Sequence record: MH051917 | Source of the DNA: Enterobacteria phage vB_EcoM_IME341 | Direction: 5' to 3' (one strand) | Length of the DNA: 64,000 bases | In this document: one piece after another, positions 11,189 through 51,155 of the stretch | Layout: each line of letters begins with the position of its first letter | How positions within the stretch are numbered: the first letter of the stretch is position 1 | The notes under the pieces: model-generated | The model's database searches: none | Told to the model about the DNA's origin: nothing | What the model saw: only the letters and a program-made list of their open reading frames with translations | Program-made: the position numbers and the translations under genes

Positions 11189-11464
11189 ATGACTAAAATT
11201 GAAATCGTTTCCGAAATTGCCACTATTGTTTCCATTTTGATTAAAACGGATTGTGAAGACATCATGCAACGTCGTGATGAGTTTATTGCCTTTTTGAATG
11301 AGTTGGGTATTCGTAATGAACATGGAAAGGAACTTAATGGACTATCTTTTAATAAACTCTTTAAGTCTTTAACTGAAGATGAACGTGATACTCTTATCGA
11401 GCAATTTAATGAAGGGTATGAAGATATACACCGTTACCTAATGATGTATACCTCCAATTTTTAA
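11189..11464 (+). CDS. asiA: AsiA anti-sigma70 factor
   Basis: 91 aa; IVSEIATIVSILIK..FIAFLNE..LTEDERDTLIEQFNEGYEDIHRYLMMYT matches recalled T4 AsiA. Confidence 0.85.
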   Translation: MTKIEIVSEIATIVSILIKTDCEDIMQRRDEFIAFLNELGIRNEHGKELNGLSFNKLFKSLTEDERDTLIEQFNEGYEDIHRYLMMYTSNF

Positions 11465-12114
11465 CGAGTTCGACCTAATGTCCTTCCGGCTTGACCGCAC
11501 ATAGACGAAAGTCTAGGAAATCCTAAATCCGGTTTGATATCATACCAGTACAACGATATCGAGCCGGCATAGATGTTATCCAAATTAAAAAACGGGCATG
11601 AAAACATATACGTGAATTGTGTTTTCTTCTTTGTAGGAAGGAATACAGTTTCGGTACTTGATTCAAAATAGTTCCCGTTAACTCCCGCCATATATTCTAC
11701 TGACGTTTTGTCAATTGGAAACCCTCCCGTATTTTTTGCGTCTACCGTTTCCGGTAATTTACCCTCGTAAGCCACCATATCCACAAAATAATTCATGTTG
11801 GTTGGTCTAAAAGAATATATTGCTGTGAAGTCTGCGCCTGAAGAAGAATGCACTATTCGGAGCTGCTCGATAGCCGCAATTTTAAATCTATTGTCCTGGT
11901 CTTGTCTAATCATTTCAGTATAAGAGGCATAAGTTGTCTCTTTGTAAAAGTTTAGAATATACTCGCCTTTATACCAAACCAGTGCCATAAAGAACAATAA
12001 TACCACGACTAGGACCCGGGAAAAAACTACTTTCCCGGAAGAAGTATCTTTAAAAATTCTATCAAGAAGTCCAAAAAGTAGGTCTGATAATGAAAATCCT
12101 ACTTTTGGTTCCAT
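11461..12114 (-). CDS. t: holin T
   Basis: 217 aa; LFGLLDRIFKD..GKV..SRV..VVLLFFMA..W and C-terminal NLDNIYAG..LYWY match recalled T4 holin. Confidence 0.9.
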   Translation of the reverse strand: MEPKVGFSLSDLLFGLLDRIFKDTSSGKVVFSRVLVVVLLFFMALVWYKGEYILNFYKETTYASYTEMIRQDQDNRFKIAAIEQLRIVHSSSGADFTAIYSFRPTNMNYFVDMVAYEGKLPETVDAKNTGGFPIDKTSVEYMAGVNGNYFESSTETVFLPTKKKTQFTYMFSCPFFNLDNIYAGSISLYWYDIKPDLGFPRLSSMCGQAGRTLGRTR

Positions 12115-12151: not shown

Positions 12152-12940
12152 TTACACACGGCTTCCGTAGATGGTTCCTACGTTCTGCCAAGAAGGAGCA
12201 TTGCCTGTAACGGCTGCACCAGCTGAACCGCCTGCAGAGGTATAAACGTTTTTGCCCCATCCTCGTCCACCGCCAGCACCAACATTACCGCCGTTACCTG
12301 CGCCGTATTGGACCGTGGTACCACCTGAGCCAGCGGCAGTTAGAGATGCGTTTGCACCGGACAATATGGCATCAGACCCTATTTTCCCACCGACGCCGAA
12401 TGGTCTACCACCACCGCCGCCACAGGTACCGTTAGTCGGATAGCTGTTCTGTAACGATACAGCACCGCCACCGCCGCCACCGCCAGCGATAGCACCATTG
12501 TTTCGAATACGCAATTTGGTTCCAGCGGCGTTATGGATTGCTGTACCACCTGCTTGGCCTGCAGAACCATTAGTAGAACCATTACCTCCTCGACCATAAA
12601 CAGTTACGCCACTATTAATGGTAAGTTGAATATACGCATTAGGAAGATTACTAGGAAATTCCAGACACGGGTTTCCGCGGCTATTTGATACTATGTTGCC
12701 GGTAATTGTGATAACGACAGGCGCACTGCCTTGGGCTCTCATCCAATTAATTAGCGTATTTCTGTCATAAGAGTTATTAGCCCCTATAGATAAGTAAATT
12801 TCTTTTGATTGGTTAGCCATCGAACCCATCCAACCCGGAACAGCTACACGAACATCTCGCATTGCTGCATCCATCCAACGTTGACCTGTTTCGTCAACTG
12901 CAGATTGTCCGACCCAACCAGGTAATCCTACGATTGCCAT
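12152..12940 (-). CDS. 38: gp38 tail-fibre adhesin (T2-type, glycine-rich motifs)
   Basis: 262 aa; N-terminus MAIVGLPGWVG; multiple poly-Gly runs (GGGGGGG, GGGGG) alternating with variable segments. Confidence 0.8.
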   Translation of the reverse strand: MAIVGLPGWVGQSAVDETGQRWMDAAMRDVRVAVPGWMGSMANQSKEIYLSIGANNSYDRNTLINWMRAQGSAPVVITITGNIVSNSRGNPCLEFPSNLPNAYIQLTINSGVTVYGRGGNGSTNGSAGQAGGTAIHNAAGTKLRIRNNGAIAGGGGGGGAVSLQNSYPTNGTCGGGGGRPFGVGGKIGSDAILSGANASLTAAGSGGTTVQYGAGNGGNVGAGGGRGWGKNVYTSAGGSAGAAVTGNAPSWQNVGTIYGSRV

Positions 12941-12952
12941 AATAAATCCTTA

Positions 12953-12966
12953 GGGCCCGAAGGCCC
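12953..12966 (-). other. UUCG hairpin between gp37 stop and gp38 SD
   Basis: minus-strand gggcc-ttcg-ggccc followed by taaggatttattATG of gp38. Confidence 0.5.
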
Positions 12967-12971
12967 TTTTC

Positions 12972-15900
12972 TTAATTTAATTTAGCTTCAAGTTCTCTAA
13001 CTTTAGCCGACAGGGTTTTAACCGCTTCAATTAACAGAGCAACTTGTGCCTGAGTCGAAACTGTTAGAACCGTATTTTCCTGTGAATCTAAAGACTCATG
13101 CACCGCTTCAGGTAATACTTCTTTAAGATTCTGAGCAATAACACCTGCTTCAGTTTGAACCGCTTCACCACCGATATATTCAGCTTTATCATAGATTAAA
13201 CCATCGAGTTGTTCAACCTTTTCAAGAGCATTTTCAATAGGCTTGAAGTTAGATTTTAAACGAATATCAGAACGAATATAAACGTTAGGAGCATTTATAT
13301 TTTTATATGAATACAAATCACCGTTTTGGAAACGGAAAGTCTGTACGCCATTCGCATATATGTCTAATAATCCATCGCCATTTTGCTTAATACCGGTATC
13401 ACTATCGCCAAATGTTATACTACTTCCACCGAGTGAGTTAGTTGTATTAACACCAAAGGCACTTGTTTGTGGCATCTGTACTTTACCAGGGCAATCTAAA
13501 AGACCGTCCATTGTAAAGCGCCATCTTGCTTGTTGGCCGGTAGCGTTGTCGCCACGTATACGAATAATGCCATCGCGCCAACCAGCTGTGGTACCAGTGC
13601 CGACCCATCCAAATTCAAAGGTTTGACGATAACCCGCTGAACCATAGTTACTCCACGCACCGACAATAGGATAATAACTACCCGAATTGGATAAATCACC
13701 ATGGTCTGCCATAAAGGTGATTTTAGATTTCGTGGAATCTGAGTTATCAGCCCAACCGCCCGGCGCGCGTGCAGATGAAACCACTCGCGAAGTAATATTG
13801 CCAAGGTTAGTATTACCACCGGTAACGTTTAATCCGCCACCAGTAATATTTAACCCGTGGTTCATGCCAACACGGCCATCGGCCATGTTGATAGAGAAAG
13901 GTCTTAAGCCATTCCACAGCCCGTCAGTTGCATTTGGGTTTTCTGCCGTGTTTTTATCTGTAACTAAAATATAAAAACTTCCACCGTCGTTTCTAATCAA
14001 AGCAGCATTAGAACCTATATCATTACCACTGGATTTGATACGCATACCTTTTTGATTATTGGTAACGTATTCACCACGTGTAACAATATCCGATTCGCCA
14101 GCAGCAAACATTCCGTCAATGTTGTTCAGCATTCTTACAGATTTACCTACAACATGACCTTCAGGTAATGTTTCTACCAAAGGCTGGACATCGCTATTAA
14201 TACCCACTACGGTTACTTTACTATTGCTACTGCATGCATATTCTACTACCAAAGAATTAGAATACCCACCTAAGTAAACGTAAATATCATAGATATCATC
14301 GCTTGTGTTAACCGAAGCAATCTGGGAAATAGCTTCAGAAGTTCTATTCCACAACGTAGCATTAAGGCCTTTAGGATTATTATTGCCGGTTCTAAGGACT
14401 ATTTCGGCTATTGAAGCCTGACCATAACTTTTAAAATTAAATCCAGACCCACCTGATATTTTAAAGGATGCTGTACCCGCACCTTGTGGAATTTCTACAG
14501 TAGCAAATTTATACCAACCTGTAGCAGCGCCGCCTTGCCAACCGCCTGTGTTAACTTTACGGTCTAACGTTGTGTTCAGGTTTTTAAAGTTTTCTAATGC
14601 AGTGCTGCCTGTAATATTACCGTCAGGACCAATACGAACATCGGAACCAATTTTAAGTGCCTTGGTTATATCAACAGTATCAGAGTTTAATGCAATACCA
14701 TGGGAGTATGTATAGTTATGTAAACGAACAACGTTACCACCATCGCCAATACCTAAATACCATTTTGTAACATCGGCTTTACGTCCTTGGATAAAGTTAG
14801 ATGCCGCCTGGGATGAAGCATTTACCACAATGGCGTCGGAATCCATATTAACACGCAGTCTACAGTCGGTCTGAACAAATTTACTTACGTTGTCTACTGT
14901 AAAAAGTGGACCACCTGTAGAAGTTTTATTACCCATTATAACCGTGCCATTAGCCAAATTAATGGAAAGCGGGCGAAGGTCGCTTATTCCACCGTTTTCA
15001 CCAGCGTTCTGGAGAGTAGGAATAAGATGGAATGAAGCAGAAGAACCTGTTTCTGAACGACGGAAAATCATACCGTATTCGGCATTCCAAATTCTTAATG
15101 CGTCAGCGGTACCGCCCATTTTAACTTGCCCGTTAATTGAAGCACCACCTTGGACAAACAGGCCATTAGTCATGGTAACATTGCCACCAAAAGAACCTGT
15201 ACCAGAGGCACTTATATTACCAAGGCCTATGATATGGCCTGTTTCAACAGTTCCGTTAAACTTAAAATTAACAGGTCCCACACCACCAGCAACAGCTGGA
15301 TTGGTTCGTTGGGCATAAAAATAATAACCTTGTGAATCTGAAACTTCCCAAACAGTTTCTCTATTACCTTTTTCAGCATTAAATGAGTTACCCCATGCTT
15401 TAAGTATAACAGTGTTTTTGTTCTGACCTGCGCGAGTACCTGAATCCCAATTAAGGGTTTTTGTCCCGTCAACGGCTGTAGGAGCAGTGAAAGCTAAGGC
15501 TGAAGTGTTATTATTAGAATTAAGAACAAGGCCATTATTAATTTGCAGACGTTGGGTCGAGGAAACTGTGCCATCGGCTCTAAGATTCAGTTCATTAACC
15601 CCGGTTTTAATATTCAAAATACCTGGTTCAATAATCATGCCTTCTGCCATAGAAATGGCTACACGACCTGTACCACGGAAATAATGATAAAGTTTACCAT
15701 TAGAATTATAACCTAAATGGGTTTGACCATCCCCAGAGTTATTACCGTCTATTTCGGTTCTAATAGAAACCATAGAAGAGTTCTGGCCAGGCAGAAGCCA
15801 AGTAAGACCTTGGTCATTACTACGGCCAAATATGGTTTTACTAGTCCCACGGAAGCCGTCGGAAGTAACAGAAGCGACAGAATAACCTCCACCTACTAAA

Positions 15901-16841
15901 TCAAAATTACCTTGTTTAATATATTTCAGACCAGTTACAGTGTCACCTAGAACAAGATACTTATCGCCCATTACACCGACGTTACCATAATCACTAGACG
16001 GGAAATCTGTAGTGAATGTACCTAATGCAAGGCTATTACGGCCTGCCATTCGTCCGTCATTACGAATGCCATATTGTTTAGATGACGGAGTATTACCTGT
16101 CCACCAAGACAGTTCATCAGCTTGACCTAATTGGGCGGTGCAAAGCTCGTGCCACATTGTGCCGCCGGATTTAGCACGAACTTTACGAAGATAGTTTACA
16201 CCATTCGTTTCACCGGTGCCTGGATAAACATACTGAACTAATGATTGTGAATCGTATTGTCCAAAGGCTTTAGAATCATGATTAATTAAATTAACACTAA
16301 TAGTTGGTGTACTAATAGAAGTTAAAGCAGTTAATTTGCGTGCCTGGAAGATGCCGCCATCTGTAGAAATAAAATGAAACTCTGAGTTCTGTGCGCCGGC
16401 AGCAGTACCTTGACGAACTCGCATTGTTGCTACGCCTTCATTTTCAGATTGGGGCTTAGCATATAATACAGCGCGTTCAGAACCGTTGGTATTTTCAAAC
16501 CACAAATGAGCATTAGAAGTATCATTAGATGCTCTAGCATAAAATGAACCATTACGAGCTCGGAAAACTGGGGCAGTAATACTACCTTCAGTTCTCATAC
16601 CCGCGGTACTAGTTTGAACAAGTTCGCCATCTAAAGTCAAACGGCCGTTAATAGTTACATCACCATCAACCTGACCGCCCTTTGCAAAACCTAAATCAAT
16701 AATCTGTCCCTGGTCTGACTTAGTAAAAATAGTGCGGTCACGCAAGTTAATAGCCAGTTCACCTTCATCTAACTGGGCTGCAGTAGGCTTGGCTCCTGCT
16801 ATTTTACTTCTTTTAAATTGTATCGATTTTAAAGTAGCCAT
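12972..16841 (-). CDS. 37: gp37 distal long tail fibre subunit with C-terminal intramolecular chaperone domain
   Basis: 1289 aa; N-terminus MATLKSIQFKRSKIAG matches T4 gp37; C-terminal ~100 aa carry SDIRLK motif and coiled coil; position between 36 and 38. Confidence 0.8.
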   Translation of the reverse strand: MATLKSIQFKRSKIAGAKPTAAQLDEGELAINLRDRTIFTKSDQGQIIDLGFAKGGQVDGDVTINGRLTLDGELVQTSTAGMRTEGSITAPVFRARNGSFYARASNDTSNAHLWFENTNGSERAVLYAKPQSENEGVATMRVRQGTAAGAQNSEFHFISTDGGIFQARKLTALTSISTPTISVNLINHDSKAFGQYDSQSLVQYVYPGTGETNGVNYLRKVRAKSGGTMWHELCTAQLGQADELSWWTGNTPSSKQYGIRNDGRMAGRNSLALGTFTTDFPSSDYGNVGVMGDKYLVLGDTVTGLKYIKQGNFDLVGGGYSVASVTSDGFRGTSKTIFGRSNDQGLTWLLPGQNSSMVSIRTEIDGNNSGDGQTHLGYNSNGKLYHYFRGTGRVAISMAEGMIIEPGILNIKTGVNELNLRADGTVSSTQRLQINNGLVLNSNNNTSALAFTAPTAVDGTKTLNWDSGTRAGQNKNTVILKAWGNSFNAEKGNRETVWEVSDSQGYYFYAQRTNPAVAGGVGPVNFKFNGTVETGHIIGLGNISASGTGSFGGNVTMTNGLFVQGGASINGQVKMGGTADALRIWNAEYGMIFRRSETGSSASFHLIPTLQNAGENGGISDLRPLSINLANGTVIMGNKTSTGGPLFTVDNVSKFVQTDCRLRVNMDSDAIVVNASSQAASNFIQGRKADVTKWYLGIGDGGNVVRLHNYTYSHGIALNSDTVDITKALKIGSDVRIGPDGNITGSTALENFKNLNTTLDRKVNTGGWQGGAATGWYKFATVEIPQGAGTASFKISGGSGFNFKSYGQASIAEIVLRTGNNNPKGLNATLWNRTSEAISQIASVNTSDDIYDIYVYLGGYSNSLVVEYACSSNSKVTVVGINSDVQPLVETLPEGHVVGKSVRMLNNIDGMFAAGESDIVTRGEYVTNNQKGMRIKSSGNDIGSNAALIRNDGGSFYILVTDKNTAENPNATDGLWNGLRPFSINMADGRVGMNHGLNITGGGLNVTGGNTNLGNITSRVVSSARAPGGWADNSDSTKSKITFMADHGDLSNSGSYYPIVGAWSNYGSAGYRQTFEFGWVGTGTTAGWRDGIIRIRGDNATGQQARWRFTMDGLLDCPGKVQMPQTSAFGVNTTNSLGGSSITFGDSDTGIKQNGDGLLDIYANGVQTFRFQNGDLYSYKNINAPNVYIRSDIRLKSNFKPIENALEKVEQLDGLIYDKAEYIGGEAVQTEAGVIAQNLKEVLPEAVHESLDSQENTVLTVSTQAQVALLIEAVKTLSAKVRELEAKLN

Positions 16842-17553: not shown

Positions 17554-18678
17554 TTAATATTTTTCTTTAAATTCTTGAACAAATACTTTACCTGCATTAC
17601 CAGATGATTTGTCATTCAATTGTGCAATAACATTACCCATTGAACGGGTTTCAGTACCATAGCTCATACGAATACCATTAACACCAATTTCAGCGGATTT
17701 AGGAGTATCTTCAGGTCTAGCTATTTCACCAAACATAACATTCCTAACACCTCCTACTCCGCCTGAGACAGTTTTTCTACAATATAATGTAAAACCAATA
17801 GCATTCGGCGGAACTTCTATTACGCGCTCAAAAGACATCCATGCACCTGCCGGTGGAGAGCCCGCTCCTACAGGAATATTGATATCAGTGGACTGAATCA
17901 TTTCCTGGCCATTAAAAAATCGTATGGACATCTGGGTCGTTCCTAAATCTTTTAAAGCCTGGTCGTAGGTCATTTGAAATTTGAGATAAAAGAAATCTCC
18001 AGGAACCATATTATAACCGGCACAAGGAGTTATAGTGGATTCGGTAGGAAACCTTTTAATTTCTTGAGTAGCTCCACTATAGTAAGTGTTTTCATCTTCA
18101 ATGACTCTAACAGGGAACCCAGTTCCTCCTACATCATTAAAGTTGTCATAAACGACTTCTAATGGGGTGGAAACGTCTTCTACCAAAACGCCGTCGTTAT
18201 AAAGCACGTGTTCCATTACTATAGCATTCCTTCCTGAAACATAAAAAGCTGAATAAGAAGTATCCACTTTATCAATGAGCCACTTATCCGGGAACGCTGT
18301 AGAACCAGAAGCTCTAAACCAATCAATTAATACCTGTGAGGCGTTTAATTTGCCGGAAGAAATAAAGCAAACAATTCTCCCGGCAGGTATAGAAGAAATA
18401 TAAGTTATAAACGCTTGGGAAATAACATCATGGTCTTTGGTAAAGGCATATGATTTTGAAGACACTATTGTGTTATTGGTCGGGTCTATTTCAACCAAAT
18501 TTAGACCAGATTGGAAATTCTGAGGACCGAAGTCCTCATCTTGAAATTTGATATAAGCCTTTTTAGTGGACTTAGTACAGCTCCCTGCTATACTAAGTTT
18601 ATAACTAACGGCATTATTTTCAGATAGTACAGGAATTTGAACGTAATCTTGTCCAAATTCGGCCATAAATCTTTCCAT
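17554..18678 (-). CDS. 35: gp35 tail fibre hinge protein
   Basis: 374 aa between 34 and 36 (T4 gp35 about 372 aa); synteny. Confidence 0.7.
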   Translation of the reverse strand: MERFMAEFGQDYVQIPVLSENNAVSYKLSIAGSCTKSTKKAYIKFQDEDFGPQNFQSGLNLVEIDPTNNTIVSSKSYAFTKDHDVISQAFITYISSIPAGRIVCFISSGKLNASQVLIDWFRASGSTAFPDKWLIDKVDTSYSAFYVSGRNAIVMEHVLYNDGVLVEDVSTPLEVVYDNFNDVGGTGFPVRVIEDENTYYSGATQEIKRFPTESTITPCAGYNMVPGDFFYLKFQMTYDQALKDLGTTQMSIRFFNGQEMIQSTDINIPVGAGSPPAGAWMSFERVIEVPPNAIGFTLYCRKTVSGGVGGVRNVMFGEIARPEDTPKSAEIGVNGIRMSYGTETRSMGNVIAQLNDKSSGNAGKVFVQEFKEKY

Positions 18679-46943: not shown

Positions 46944-49028
46944 ATGACCGAACAATTAAATGAAGTGTTTGAGTCCGAAGGCACACTGCCTACAGTAAAC
47001 TTGAACCCTAAACTTAAAGTACCACAGATTTGGAAGATTGGAGACGTAGAGTCTCAATTAGTGGCGCGTATTGTGTCCTACGCTTCTGAAGGCGATGCCA
47101 TTAAACAAGTTAAATTGGGTGACAAATATGCCCACGTTATCCTTATGAGCCTTTCGGCTAAAGGTTCTCCTGCTGAACTTAAAGGCGGCTTAGGCCCTAC
47201 TCCTATTGATGCCATTAATACCATTTTCGACGTAGTATTCGAACAAGTTAAAAAGCTTCGTATGGATGCCGTGATGTTCCGTTTCCCTACCAAGAAAATG
47301 AAAGGACAAGGCCCTATTGTCCAGAGAATTATCCAACGTTTAGTAACTCAAAAAACCGGCGGGCGTTTCAAAGTAGTTCCAGCTATGTACCAATTTACGG
47401 GCAAGCATACTTATATCTTAGTAGTTCGTAAACAAGCTGATATCGAAGATATCAAAGGTATGCCAGGAATTAATGCCGAATTATATACTAAGGTAGATTC
47501 TGATGTCGGTGAAGTTTATATTTCTAAAAAAGAAGGCGTGCAGGTTACTAAAGAAACTGCTATTGCCGGCAGTATTGCTAAAGTTGAAGAACGTCGCACT
47601 GATAAAATGGTTATAACTAAGACTAAGATTTCTCGTCGTGCCATTGCAGCAAGTCAATCGTTAGAATCTTATCGTAATGAAAGTGAACTGTTTAAGAAAT
47701 ATGAAGCAAATGCTGTAGATTTTAATAAACCGGCGACAGCTCCATTAATCCCTGAGGCCCAGGAAATGGTCACTAATAACAATTCTCCTGCGGCTAAAAA
47801 TAAGGTTGCTAATATAGTAGCTGAAGGTACTGCCGAAGAGTTGCATTATGATTATAAAATGTTTCCTCTTCACGGTATAGGTGAAATCCAAGAGAAAATT
47901 AAAGAGAAAATCCTGTCAGCCATCAAAAACGAACCTTTGACATCTGTTAAAGCTCTAGAAAAATACGCCTCTGTTATTAATACCGTTTTCGAAGAATACA
48001 AAGGCGAATGGTTGGCCCAGCATAACAAAACTCGTAAAGGCCAACCTGACGACCTCTGGAATGAATTGACCGAGTCCAAGTGGAAAGCAGCCAAGACCAA
48101 ATTCATTAAAAAACGCGTATATAGTTTTGCTGGTGTAGGTGGCGGTATTATGGTCGATATTACTATTGCTCGTGAGGGCTCTAAATATACCCCATCACAA
48201 AAGCGCGGCATCAGAGAATATTGCGGTTCAGGATATACAGATATCAATAATCTTCTTTTAGGACGCTATAATCCTCATAACTATGATGTAATGAACGAAA
48301 AATCTATTGAATCTGCAGTTAATAATTTGGATTCTGCTTTTGAAAATGGTGACCGTATACCGGAAGGCATTACAGTTTATCGTGCACAGAGTATGACTGC
48401 TCCTATATACGAAGCACTAGTTAAAAATAAAGTGTTCTATTTTAGAAATTTTGTATCTACTTCTTTAACTCCTATCATTTTTGGACGATTTGGTGTTACA
48501 CACGCCGGTATCGGTCTTTTAGAACCGGAAGTTCGCGATGAATTGACGGTCGATAAAAATGAAGAAGGAATAACTATTAACCCTAATGAAATAAGAGCGT
48601 ATAAAGAAAATCCTGATTACGTTAAAGTTCAAATAGGATGGGCGATTGACGGTGCTCATAAAGTTAATGTGGTATATCCAGGAAGTCTCGGAATAGCAAC
48701 TGAAGCTGAAGTCATTTTACCTCGTGGGTTAATGGTCAAAGTTAATAAAATAACAGATGCTTCTAATAATGACGGAACAACATCTAATAATACAAAACTC
48801 ATCCAAGCCGAAGTTATGACGACAGATGAGCTTCAAGAATCTGTGGTGTATGATGGTGACGTACTAATGGAAACCGGCGAGTTGGTCGTATATCAAGATG
48901 ATTTCGATACTTCCGAAAGCCCTGTATCTTTTGATTCATTTGTTAAATCTACACGGTTTGATGTACTGCCTCTTTTGGCTTCATGCATAGACCTCTATGA
49001 CATCCCAGAAAAATTCATCCAAGGGTAA
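46944..49028 (+). CDS. alt: Alt ADP-ribosyltransferase (head-packaged, modifies host RNA polymerase), copy 1
   Basis: 694 aa; N-terminal and mid regions (ISRRAIA.SQSLES) match recalled T4 Alt; R-S-E motifs YRAQ, FVSTSLT, EAEVILPRG. Confidence 0.85.
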   Translation: MTEQLNEVFESEGTLPTVNLNPKLKVPQIWKIGDVESQLVARIVSYASEGDAIKQVKLGDKYAHVILMSLSAKGSPAELKGGLGPTPIDAINTIFDVVFEQVKKLRMDAVMFRFPTKKMKGQGPIVQRIIQRLVTQKTGGRFKVVPAMYQFTGKHTYILVVRKQADIEDIKGMPGINAELYTKVDSDVGEVYISKKEGVQVTKETAIAGSIAKVEERRTDKMVITKTKISRRAIAASQSLESYRNESELFKKYEANAVDFNKPATAPLIPEAQEMVTNNNSPAAKNKVANIVAEGTAEELHYDYKMFPLHGIGEIQEKIKEKILSAIKNEPLTSVKALEKYASVINTVFEEYKGEWLAQHNKTRKGQPDDLWNELTESKWKAAKTKFIKKRVYSFAGVGGGIMVDITIAREGSKYTPSQKRGIREYCGSGYTDINNLLLGRYNPHNYDVMNEKSIESAVNNLDSAFENGDRIPEGITVYRAQSMTAPIYEALVKNKVFYFRNFVSTSLTPIIFGRFGVTHAGIGLLEPEVRDELTVDKNEEGITINPNEIRAYKENPDYVKVQIGWAIDGAHKVNVVYPGSLGIATEAEVILPRGLMVKVNKITDASNNDGTTSNNTKLIQAEVMTTDELQESVVYDGDVLMETGELVVYQDDFDTSESPVSFDSFVKSTRFDVLPLLASCIDLYDIPEKFIQG

Positions 49029-49031
49029 ATA

Positions 49032-51155
49032 ATGGAAAATTTAAACGAGGTTTTTGATAGTGATTCCGCTAAAAACTATCCAGTAACAAATCTTAAACCG
49101 GGTTCCGGTATCCCACAGATTTTCTCTATCCATGCACCAGGTAATGATAACCTGGTGGCTCGTATGGTATCTTATGCGTCTCAAGGAGACGCTATTAAAA
49201 TGGTTAAGCCAGGCGACAAATACATTCATGTTATTCTAATGAGTTTGTCAAGCAAGGGTGCTCCGGCTGAACTTAAGGGTGGCCTTGGTTCTGACCCACT
49301 TGGTACACTGAATACCATTTTCGATACTGTATACGAACAAGTAAACAAACTTAAAATGGATGCAGTTTTATTCCGTTTCCCTACCAAGAAAATGAAAGGT
49401 AAGGGTCCTACTGTTCAGCGCGTATTGGCACGTTTGGCGATGGCTCGTACCGGTGGTAAGTTTAAAGTTGTTGACAACATGTTCCAATTCAGTGGAAAAC
49501 ATACCTACGTTCTTTTAGTACGTCGTGGTTCTAATATCGAAGATATCAAAGGCATGCCTGAAATTGATGCTGACCTTTATACCAAAGTCGATTCTAAAGT
49601 CGGCGAAGTGTATGTTTCTAAGAAAACCGGCCAGGCCGTAAGTAAGGTCGAAGCCGTAGCGGCATCTATTGCACAGGTTGAAGAGAAACGTACCGATAAG
49701 GCTGTCATTACTCGTACTAAGATTTCACGACGTATGGCCGCAGCCGCGCAGTATTCTACTGCTGAGCCTGAAACTTTGCCCCCTAAAGAATTGCAGGTTT
49801 ATAACGAATTTGAAGCTTCTGTACCGGTTCACACTGCCGAAGGCCCTGAGAACGAAGGTATTGAACAGATTAGTCAGAACTTTAAAAAAGGTGCTATTAC
49901 CAAAATGCGCCAGGCTTCTCAGTTTAAATCTAAGAGCGAGGACCTTGCCAACTTTAGATACACCATTGCTCTCACACATGCTTTAATGACTGATAGTAAA
50001 TTTAAACTAAATTATGCTAATAGAGATAAACAAGGGTTTGAAATTTACTCTAAAAATATGGCATTTTTTAATACAGAAGTCGATAGACTTTTAAGCGGCC
50101 TTTCGCAAATCAATACAACTAATAGTCTGGATATTATTAAGAGAATTGTTAATAACCTGAGTGCCCGTTTTAATGGTTCCCCTTCAGAGAAAGCATCTCG
50201 AATTGCTTTCGCTATGGAAGCCGTTTATAAACTGATTAACGATTCTATTGGTGATGCATATGCTTATTCAGGCGAACTCATTAAACCTAAGGACCTAACC
50301 AAAGACGAAAGCAATGCTATTATTGAATATTGCGCAGCTGAATATGCTCCTATGAACTTATTCCTTTTAGGTAAACCTGAATCCGAAAACAATACAACGG
50401 CTATTAGATTGATTAAGGATTTAGACTCGGCATTTACTAAGGGTATTAAACTTCCTAAGGGTACTATTTTGTATCGTGGTCAGGATTTGCCATACAAAAT
50501 TCTGCGTCATAATATCGATAACAAAACATTTTACTTTAAGAACTTTGTGTCCGCCTCACTAAAGCCTAACATCTTTGGTGAATTCGGTAAAAATTATATG
50601 GCCCTCGACAACCAAGCCGTTTTTGTTGGTGGTGAAGGTTCTTTATCCTCCGCTGATGAGTTGTTTAAATTGGCTAGTGGTAGTTCATCTGATGTGGGTG
50701 AAGTCGATGACGAAGAGGTAGAATGGGAAGAAGACGAGTTTGGTAATCCAATTGCCCCTGAAGGTCCTGCGGATAGAATTGCTGAAATAGGCATGGTTAT
50801 TCGAGGTGCTGAAGCAGTTAAAGTTATCGCTCCTGGTGACCTTACAGAATACGCTGAAGAAGCAGAAATCATCCTTCCGCGAGGATTATTGATGAAGGTT
50901 GATAAAGTAGCGGCTTTTGCTATGAATGATAGGGTATCTCACAAATATCTTATGGAAGCTACTGTGATGTCTCCTTCAGAGCTCAGTGAATCTGTTTACG
51001 ATGGTGACCATCTAATGGAAACCGGTGAAGTTCGTCCGATGGATGGCTTTAAACAGTTCTTGGTTAGTGAATCTGTTTCTGAAAGCAACGAGGCTATGGA
51101 AATCTTAGCAGCATCTTTGGATATCTCTTCTCTACCAAATAAATTCAAAATGTAG
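49032..51155 (+). CDS. Alt-like ADP-ribosyltransferase paralog, copy 2
   Basis: 707 aa; N-terminal ~230 aa similar to copy 1; YRGQ, FVSASLK (SAS instead of STS), EAEIILPRG; acidic insert before the ExE. Confidence 0.8.
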   Translation: MENLNEVFDSDSAKNYPVTNLKPGSGIPQIFSIHAPGNDNLVARMVSYASQGDAIKMVKPGDKYIHVILMSLSSKGAPAELKGGLGSDPLGTLNTIFDTVYEQVNKLKMDAVLFRFPTKKMKGKGPTVQRVLARLAMARTGGKFKVVDNMFQFSGKHTYVLLVRRGSNIEDIKGMPEIDADLYTKVDSKVGEVYVSKKTGQAVSKVEAVAASIAQVEEKRTDKAVITRTKISRRMAAAAQYSTAEPETLPPKELQVYNEFEASVPVHTAEGPENEGIEQISQNFKKGAITKMRQASQFKSKSEDLANFRYTIALTHALMTDSKFKLNYANRDKQGFEIYSKNMAFFNTEVDRLLSGLSQINTTNSLDIIKRIVNNLSARFNGSPSEKASRIAFAMEAVYKLINDSIGDAYAYSGELIKPKDLTKDESNAIIEYCAAEYAPMNLFLLGKPESENNTTAIRLIKDLDSAFTKGIKLPKGTILYRGQDLPYKILRHNIDNKTFYFKNFVSASLKPNIFGEFGKNYMALDNQAVFVGGEGSLSSADELFKLASGSSSDVGEVDDEEVEWEEDEFGNPIAPEGPADRIAEIGMVIRGAEAVKVIAPGDLTEYAEEAEIILPRGLLMKVDKVAAFAMNDRVSHKYLMEATVMSPSELSESVYDGDHLMETGEVRPMDGFKQFLVSESVSESNEAMEILAASLDISSLPNKFKM

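Follow-up and report, generated by a model that had tools for sequence, protein, structure and literature searches.

The peptidase S74 family was described between 2007 and 2010; the processing of T2 gp37 is said to have been described in 1986, and the S16 gp37-gp38 structure reportedly in 2018. The chaperone domains of T5 and K1F form a central trimeric coiled coil and are released after folding (PMC4690869). In T5 pb1, the Thr1263-Ser1264 bond is cut, Lys1269 adjoins the serine, and a Ser1264Ala substitution in the recombinant protein blocks cleavage; the folding sensors Arg1250 and Asp1239, which come from the neighbouring chain, form the oxyanion hole (PMC4690869).

For T2 and T6, C-terminal cleavage of gp37 followed by capping with gp38 is reported secondhand in PMC3157838 (citing Drexler et al. 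1986), which also describes a lock-and-key pairing of the gp37 tip subtype with the gp38 N-terminal subtype. In the S16 model, as relayed by PMC7917993 (citing Dunne et al. 2018), autocleavage exposes the docking surface for gp38, and the N-terminal tryptophans of S16 gp38 are the prongs that plug into the gp37 tip (PMC7917993). The S16 site is DLNVS^SDRRIKK (the caret marks the cut), and Yersinia T4-like phages carry DVYIR^SDGRLKI (PMC7917993).

Here, we analysed a 64,000-nucleotide stretch of Enterobacteria phage vB_EcoM_IME341 (MH051917), referred to below as the window, in which gene 37 ends in a peptidase S74 domain and is followed by a T2-type gene 38. This combination is real, had been read correctly in a preliminary description of the DNA, and is already known from T2, T6, and S16.

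Results

A peptidase S74 domain forms the C terminus of gp37

The features of gene 37 considered here are the following.

12972..16841, minus strand: gene 37, long tail fibre distal subunit precursor, 1289 amino acids, calculated mass 137.4 kDa
13272..13571, minus strand: C-terminal 100 residues (1091-1190) of gp37 in its predicted mature form, presumed gp38 docking tip, ending in NAPNVYIR
13254..13271, minus strand: SDIRLK, residues 1191-1196, predicted autocleavage motif (invariant Ser and Lys in homologue alignments)
12975..13271, minus strand: peptidase S74 chaperone domain (Pfam PF13884), 99 amino acids, 10.8 kDa, calculated pI 4.6
12975..13055, minus strand: C-terminal amphipathic helix (about residues 1263-1289), predicted trimeric coiled coil (DSSP, heptads)

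In a PHROGs search, gp37 corresponds to PHROG 1699 (phrog_1699), 'long tail fiber protein distal subunit', with an E value of 0, and Pfam recognises three domains in it: gp37_trimer, Gp34_trimer, and Peptidase_S74. The translated open reading frame ends in ...NAPNVYIRSDIRLKSNFKPIENALEKVEQLDGLIYDK...VRELEAKLN. gp37 has a single SD.[RK].K site, SDIRLK, whose serine is residue 1191 and is encoded by the minus-strand codon at 13271-13269; the interval 12972-13271 therefore comprises residues 1191-1289 (99 amino acids) and the stop codon at 12972-12974.

The profile search suggested by the preliminary description, which had assigned the last ~100 residues of the 1289-residue protein to an S74 domain, confirmed that placement. 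PF13884 Peptidase_S74 ('Chaperone of endosialidase') matched residues 1191-1248 over its full length (profile positions 1-58 of 58) with an E value of 9.1e-16 and 58.3 bits, compared with a curated cut-off of 22 bits. The match is far above chance, and it places the domain in the last 99 of the 1289 residues of a long tail fibre distal subunit. No second S74 domain was found when an HMM of the homologue alignment was run against six-frame fragments of at least 50 amino acids from the whole window, with gp34, gp36, and gp12-like proteins among the candidates considered; gp37 alone was matched.

A search with the last 129 residues of gp37 returned 39 homologous proteins, all of them (39/39) carrying PF13884; they are short, mostly metagenomic, without full-length fibres, and a poor guide to distribution. 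Ser1191 and Lys1196 are invariant in an alignment of 35 sequences (the query and 34 homologues), with near-invariance of D, I, and R within the motif. Among solved structures, the gp37 C terminus matched the S16 gp37 construct 6F45_A (E 1.6e-10 with the single sequence and 2.8e-19 with a profile); sequence or profile also matched the tail fibre 8JOV, the MyRF ICA 7DC3, and the GA-1 neck appendage chaperone 3GUD. The SD.R.K motif is aligned in all four chains, with SDIRLK opposite SDRRIK in S16, SDERLK in 8JOV, and SDERHK in GA-1. These alignments bear out the Ser-Lys dyad that had been proposed within SDIRLK. By analogy with characterised members of the family, Ser1191 is predicted to be the scissile and catalytic residue and Lys1196 the general base, with the cut falling between Arg1190 and Ser1191. 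The Ser-to-Lys spacing is that of Ser1264 and Lys1269 in T5. The motif of the Yersinia T4-like phages, DVYIR^SDGRLKI, is almost that of gp37 here.

Trimming of gp37 might instead be the work of a separate phage or host protease, with the S74 domain serving as a chaperone and not as a peptidase; PMC3157838 cites the 1986 work on T2 under a title that mentions just 'proteolytic processing'. We consider this very unlikely. S74 peptidases are marked by a catalytic Ser-x4-Lys dyad, and the same residues are invariant in gp37 and its aligned homologues. Moreover, the loss of cleavage in T5 pb1 follows from the Ser1264Ala change in the recombinant protein (PMC4690869), and cleavage in S16 is described as autocleavage (PMC7917993). 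All of this favours self-cleavage of gp37.

An AlphaFold monomer model of the last 129 residues had block-mean pLDDT values of ~87-97 for the greater part of the domain and 57 in one loop, whereas the 28 residues preceding the domain fell below 50. The model predicts a mixed alpha/beta unit followed by a C-terminal coiled-coil helix, as in the solved chaperone domains. When it was compared with the PDB using Foldseek, the best match was MyRF ICA 7DC3 (E 1.8e-6, TM 0.63, 28% identity), followed by the K1F endosialidase chaperone 3GW6 (E 2e-3) and GA-1 3GUD; besides these three, nothing in the PDB reached E <0.9. DSSP assigned one long helix to residues 1263-1288 (model residues 103-128). In the last 30 residues of gp37, the heptad a positions are occupied by V,V,V,L and the d positions by L,L,L, and a tail with this pattern fits the central trimeric coiled coil of T5 and K1F. 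The C-terminal coiled coil that had been noted earlier is thus upheld by both the heptads and the modelled helix. These data establish the identity of the domain and its dyad residues and provide its predicted fold.

Gene 38 encodes an adhesin of the T2 type

Upstream of gene 37, the window encodes gp36, gp35, and gp34. Downstream lie the following features.

12941..12971, minus strand: 37-38 spacer, 31 nt, with a GGGCC-UUCG-GGCCC hairpin and then the gene 38 ribosome-binding site UAAGGA
12152..12940, minus strand: gene 38, T2-type tail-fibre tip adhesin, 262 amino acids (Pfam, 6F45_D, identity to T2)
11461..12114, minus strand: gene t (holin; Pfam Phage_holin_T, E 3.6e-66, and T2 annotation), closing the 37-38-t block as in T2

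Our results agree with the earlier reading of the downstream gene as an adhesin-type gene 38. Its product matched PF05268 GP38 'phage tail fibre adhesin' with an E value of 3e-80 and PF21721 Gp38_N with 5.7e-16, as well as the crystallised S16 adhesin chain 6F45_D (E 3.7e-44) and the gp38 fusion 9V85. Residues W9, W22, and W37 align with tryptophans of S16 gp38. The protein has the layout of the adhesin family, with an attachment domain at the N terminus and a glycine-rich domain for receptor binding. On the gp37 side, residues 1091-1190 can be aligned with the S16 gp37 tip fragment that was co-crystallised with gp38 (6F45_A), and from PMC7917993 and PMC3157838 we infer a docking role for this segment. 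The adhesin-type gp38 and the order of the genes are direct results of the present analysis.

The hairpin in the spacer was considered as a terminator and rejected: it is without a U-run, and the folding energy of a 56-nt segment is ordinary compared with shuffled sequences (z = -1.2). A UUCG tetraloop is present in the T2 spacer too, where its stem differs. Neither tRNAs nor Rfam families were found when the whole window was scanned.

Comparison with T4 supports the contrast drawn in the preliminary description. T4 gp37 carries Collar and Phage_fiber and no S74 domain, whereas gp37 here, like T2 gp37, carries S74, and it has neither Collar nor Phage_fiber (Pfam). T4 gp38, at 183 amino acids, has no Pfam family match, unlike gp38 here. 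The gp37 and gp38 of the window accordingly fall outside the T4-type fibre tips, where the needle domain of gp37 is the adhesin and gp38 a chaperone. The general chaperone gp57A was reportedly still co-expressed in the S16 work, and the contrast with T4 should not be taken to imply that an S74 domain removes the need for it.

The gene name and its position after gene 37 are nevertheless common to T4, and on these grounds gp38 might be supposed to be a T4-style assembly chaperone and not a virion adhesin, with the receptor-binding site residing on gp37. We regard this as extremely improbable, since T4 gp38 lacks the two Pfam families found here and the window protein matches 6F45_D and 9V85 and is 87% identical to T2 gp38. 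A virion adhesin remains the preferred reading of gp38.

The fibre tip is shared with T2, and the remaining genome is Dhakavirus-like

Overall, gp37 of the window is 57% identical to T2 gp37 and is 52 amino acids shorter. The similarity is unevenly distributed: the N-terminal ~750 residues are weakly similar, whereas identity is ~85% from residue ~759 onward, that is, across the C-terminal ~530 residues. Over the last 199 amino acids it is 82%, with NVYIRSDIRLKSNFKPIENAL unchanged in both proteins, and the residues on the two sides of the predicted cut, NVYIR^SDIRLKSNFKPIENAL, are identical. Pfam places S74 at residues 1243-1300 of T2 gp37, and the chaperone domain is 99 amino acids long in T2 as it is here. 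This domain is 75% identical between the two phages and is less conserved than the adjoining 100-residue mature tip, at 90%. T2 gp38 has 262 amino acids, as here, and is 87% identical. The gp37 tip and gp38 of the window are thus a matched pair of the T2 subtype, and the 37-38-t gene order is common to both phages. The T2/T6-type tip architecture that had been proposed is sustained by the adhesin gp38, the T2-matched tip, and this gene order, and its scheme of cleavage followed by capping is as published.

The comparison with T2 also bears on whether the S74-like domain is removed at all. It could stay on the mature fibre as a non-cleaving cap or as a degenerate trimerisation coiled coil. The cut is preceded by Arg here but by Ser in S16 and by Thr in T5. 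In addition, equivalents of the Arg/Asp folding sensors of T5 (Arg1250 and Asp1239) and K1F could not be mapped on gp37 by sequence, the stretch that separates the tip from the cut site being divergent and gapped relative to S16; in the translation, several Arg, Lys, and Asp residues (R1190, K1180, D1175, R1170, and D1160) are located 1-31 residues before Ser1191, and singling one out would take a trimer structure. A retained domain is, however, highly improbable. Both dyad residues, Ser1191 and Lys1196, are intact and do not vary among the homologues, and PMC3157838 relays that T2 gp37, a nearly identical protein, is processed. A domain left in place would cover the tip on which gp38 docks (PMC7917993), yet a complete adhesin-type gp38 is encoded next door. 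We therefore retain cleavage and release as the likely fate of the domain.

Beyond the fibre tip, the relationships of the window are different. At the DNA level, gene 38 and the part of gene 37 encoding the C-terminal ~530 residues are ~79% identical to T2, a Tequatrovirus, whereas the remaining genome is Dhakavirus-like. In the fibre region, DNA identity is 95% with Escherichia phage IME08 and 85-86% with phages dhabil and CLB_P2, the latter catalogued as Dhakavirus CLBP2. A 23-kb backbone stretch is ~95% identical to IME281, vB_EcoM_FB, WG01, and QL01 and ~92.5% identical to JS10. On the basis of these fibre-region and backbone identities, the window is Dhakavirus-like; it belongs to a Dhakavirus-like phage with a T2-like cassette of fibre tip, chaperone, and adhesin. 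In EcWhh-1, the backbone is 92% identical to the window and the chaperone domain 27.7% identical, indicating that relatives with similar backbones can carry quite different versions of the S74 domain. This divergence agrees with the account in PMC3157838 of fibre loci being shuffled as modules. In phage AnYang, by comparison, the chaperone domain is 98% identical.

When the 99 residues of the domain were searched against a phage collection using tblastn, a homologous domain was found in 1,704 of 50,697 phage records, some of them already annotated as 'chaperone of endosialidase'. The finding must therefore be counted as already known.

Discussion

Together, our results suggest that the S74 domain of gp37 very probably trimerises, nucleates folding of the fibre tip, and cleaves itself off at Arg1190-Ser1191, thereby freeing the tip for gp38. 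Cleavage, its position, and the docking of gp38 are taken from T2, S16, T5, and K1F. The protein would be made as a 137-kDa precursor in which the last 99 residues act as an intramolecular chaperone. Three S74 domains would associate through the C-terminal coiled coil and set the three chains in register, and the resulting trimer would nucleate folding of the trimeric, beta-structured tip, starting at its C-terminal end. Correct folding of the tip would be followed by activation of Ser1191 by Lys1196 and by a cut at the Arg1190-Ser1191 bond of every chain. The 10.8-kDa domain would then leave, and the mature gp37 would offer a surface to the N-terminal domain of gp38, whose glycine-rich domain would determine the receptor.

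Other roles can be imagined for a minimal S74 domain that has no tentacles. It could also be a timed checkpoint that physically keeps gp38 from docking as long as the tip is unfolded, and the released acidic 10.8-kDa trimer might serve another purpose inside the infected cell. In a related view, the tip, chaperone domain, and adhesin may be exchanged among T-even genera as a single co-adapted unit in which the chaperone domain evolves more rapidly than the tip. We judge these ideas unlikely, and the sequence of chaperoned folding, self-cleavage, and capping by gp38 is the one that we favour.

The value of the finding lies chiefly in annotation and in the design of recombinant fibres, and it opens no new question. 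The feature puts the phage in the T2/S16 class of tail-fibre tips, from which it follows that host range should be engineered via the variable loops of gp38 rather than via gp37. In recombinant gp37, the C-terminal 99 residues should be kept so that the protein folds. The mature virion protein is predicted to end at Arg1190 and to have a mass of 126.6 kDa rather than 137.4 kDa.

Among the known systems, S16 has the same arrangement: its S74 domain, with the SD.R.K motif, comes after a homologous tip, and its homologous gp38 has N-terminal tryptophan prongs and a polyglycine domain. The S74 domain of S16 comprises 113 amino acids, compared with 99 here. The domains of T5 pb1 (4UW8) and K1F (3GW6) are likewise C-terminal on a trimeric fibre or spike and have a Ser/Lys pair at the spacing seen here, and 3GW6 was recovered by the fold search, but they are larger (133 amino acids in T5) and bear long beta-hairpin 'tentacles', whereas the domain described here is minimal. 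Superposition of the K1F domain on the gp37 model was local, with a TM of ~0.43 and a high rmsd; MyRF gave the better value of 0.63. MyRF ICA (7DC3), the best structural match and one also found by sequence, is a eukaryotic S74 homologue that belongs to a membrane-bound transcription factor and not to a virion fibre, and cleavage there releases the transcription factor. The mature tips of T5 and K1F are themselves receptor binders or enzymes, whereas the gp37 tip here would receive a separate adhesin that docks on it. A minimal domain and the docking site that its removal would uncover are traits common to gp37 of this phage, T2, and S16.

A T2-like fibre tip on a Dhakavirus-like backbone

Sequence comparison indicates that the genome is a mosaic, combining a T2-like fibre tip with a Dhakavirus-like backbone. 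We contrasted the following segment with the remainder of the window:

12152-14520, T2-like segment, comprising the adhesin gp38 together with ~530 aa at the C-terminus of the distal fibre subunit gp37

Across gp38 and this part of gp37, nucleotide identity to T2 was 79%, and gp38 itself shared 87% of its amino acids with T2 gp38. The backbone was ~95% identical to phages IME281 and IME08. A further phage, EcWhh-1, matched the window at 92% in the backbone, whereas its chaperone domain shared only 27.7% identity with that of the window's gp37. Tip, chaperone domain, and adhesin thus vary among phages with like backbones.

Within gp37 (12975-13571, minus strand), identity to T2 was 90% over the final 100 residues of the mature tip and 75% in the chaperone domain, which is predicted to be discarded by self-cleavage. 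The domain was thus the less conserved of the two, apart from its first ~20 residues around the cleavage motif, which were near-identical to those of T2.

Other reading frames and RNA gene scans

Three further ORFs gave protein-family matches:

17554-18678, minus strand, 374-aa ORF in the gp35 position, assigned as gp35 from gene order and size
46944-49028, plus strand, large ORF of 694 aa with a PF03496 match (ADP-ribosyltransferase exoenzyme)
49032-51155, plus strand, large ORF of 707 aa adjoining the former, with a weaker, partial PF03496 match

Residues 57-128 of the gp35-position ORF significantly matched Pfam ILEI (PF15711, "Interleukin-like EMT inducer"; E 8.2e-9), a surprising family name on a fibre joint. 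The 694- and 707-aa ORFs look like tandem Alt-like paralogues. Scanning both strands of the 64-kb window (1-64000) revealed no tRNA genes with ARAGORN and no Rfam families at gathering score.

Gene junctions compared with T2

Two junctions flanking gene 38 and the holin gene t were compared with T2:

11189-11464, plus strand, 91-aa ORF occupying the position of T2 asiA
11461-12114, minus strand, gene t
12941-12971, minus strand, 31-nt spacer separating gene 37 from gene 38
12953-12966, minus strand, hairpin GGGCC-UUCG-GGCCC inside this spacer

The 91-aa ORF and gene t are convergent and their 3' ends share 4 bases (11461-11464), whereas asiA and t adjoin without overlap in T2. The spacer hairpin has no U-run after it and is immediately followed by the gene 38 ribosome-binding site, UAAGGA; the fold energy of a 56-nt stretch containing the hairpin was unremarkable compared with shuffles (z = -1.2). 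T2 carries AGAGGGC-UUCG-GCCCUCU at the corresponding position, indicating that the C(UUCG)G tetraloop is retained, whereas the stem differs between the two phages.
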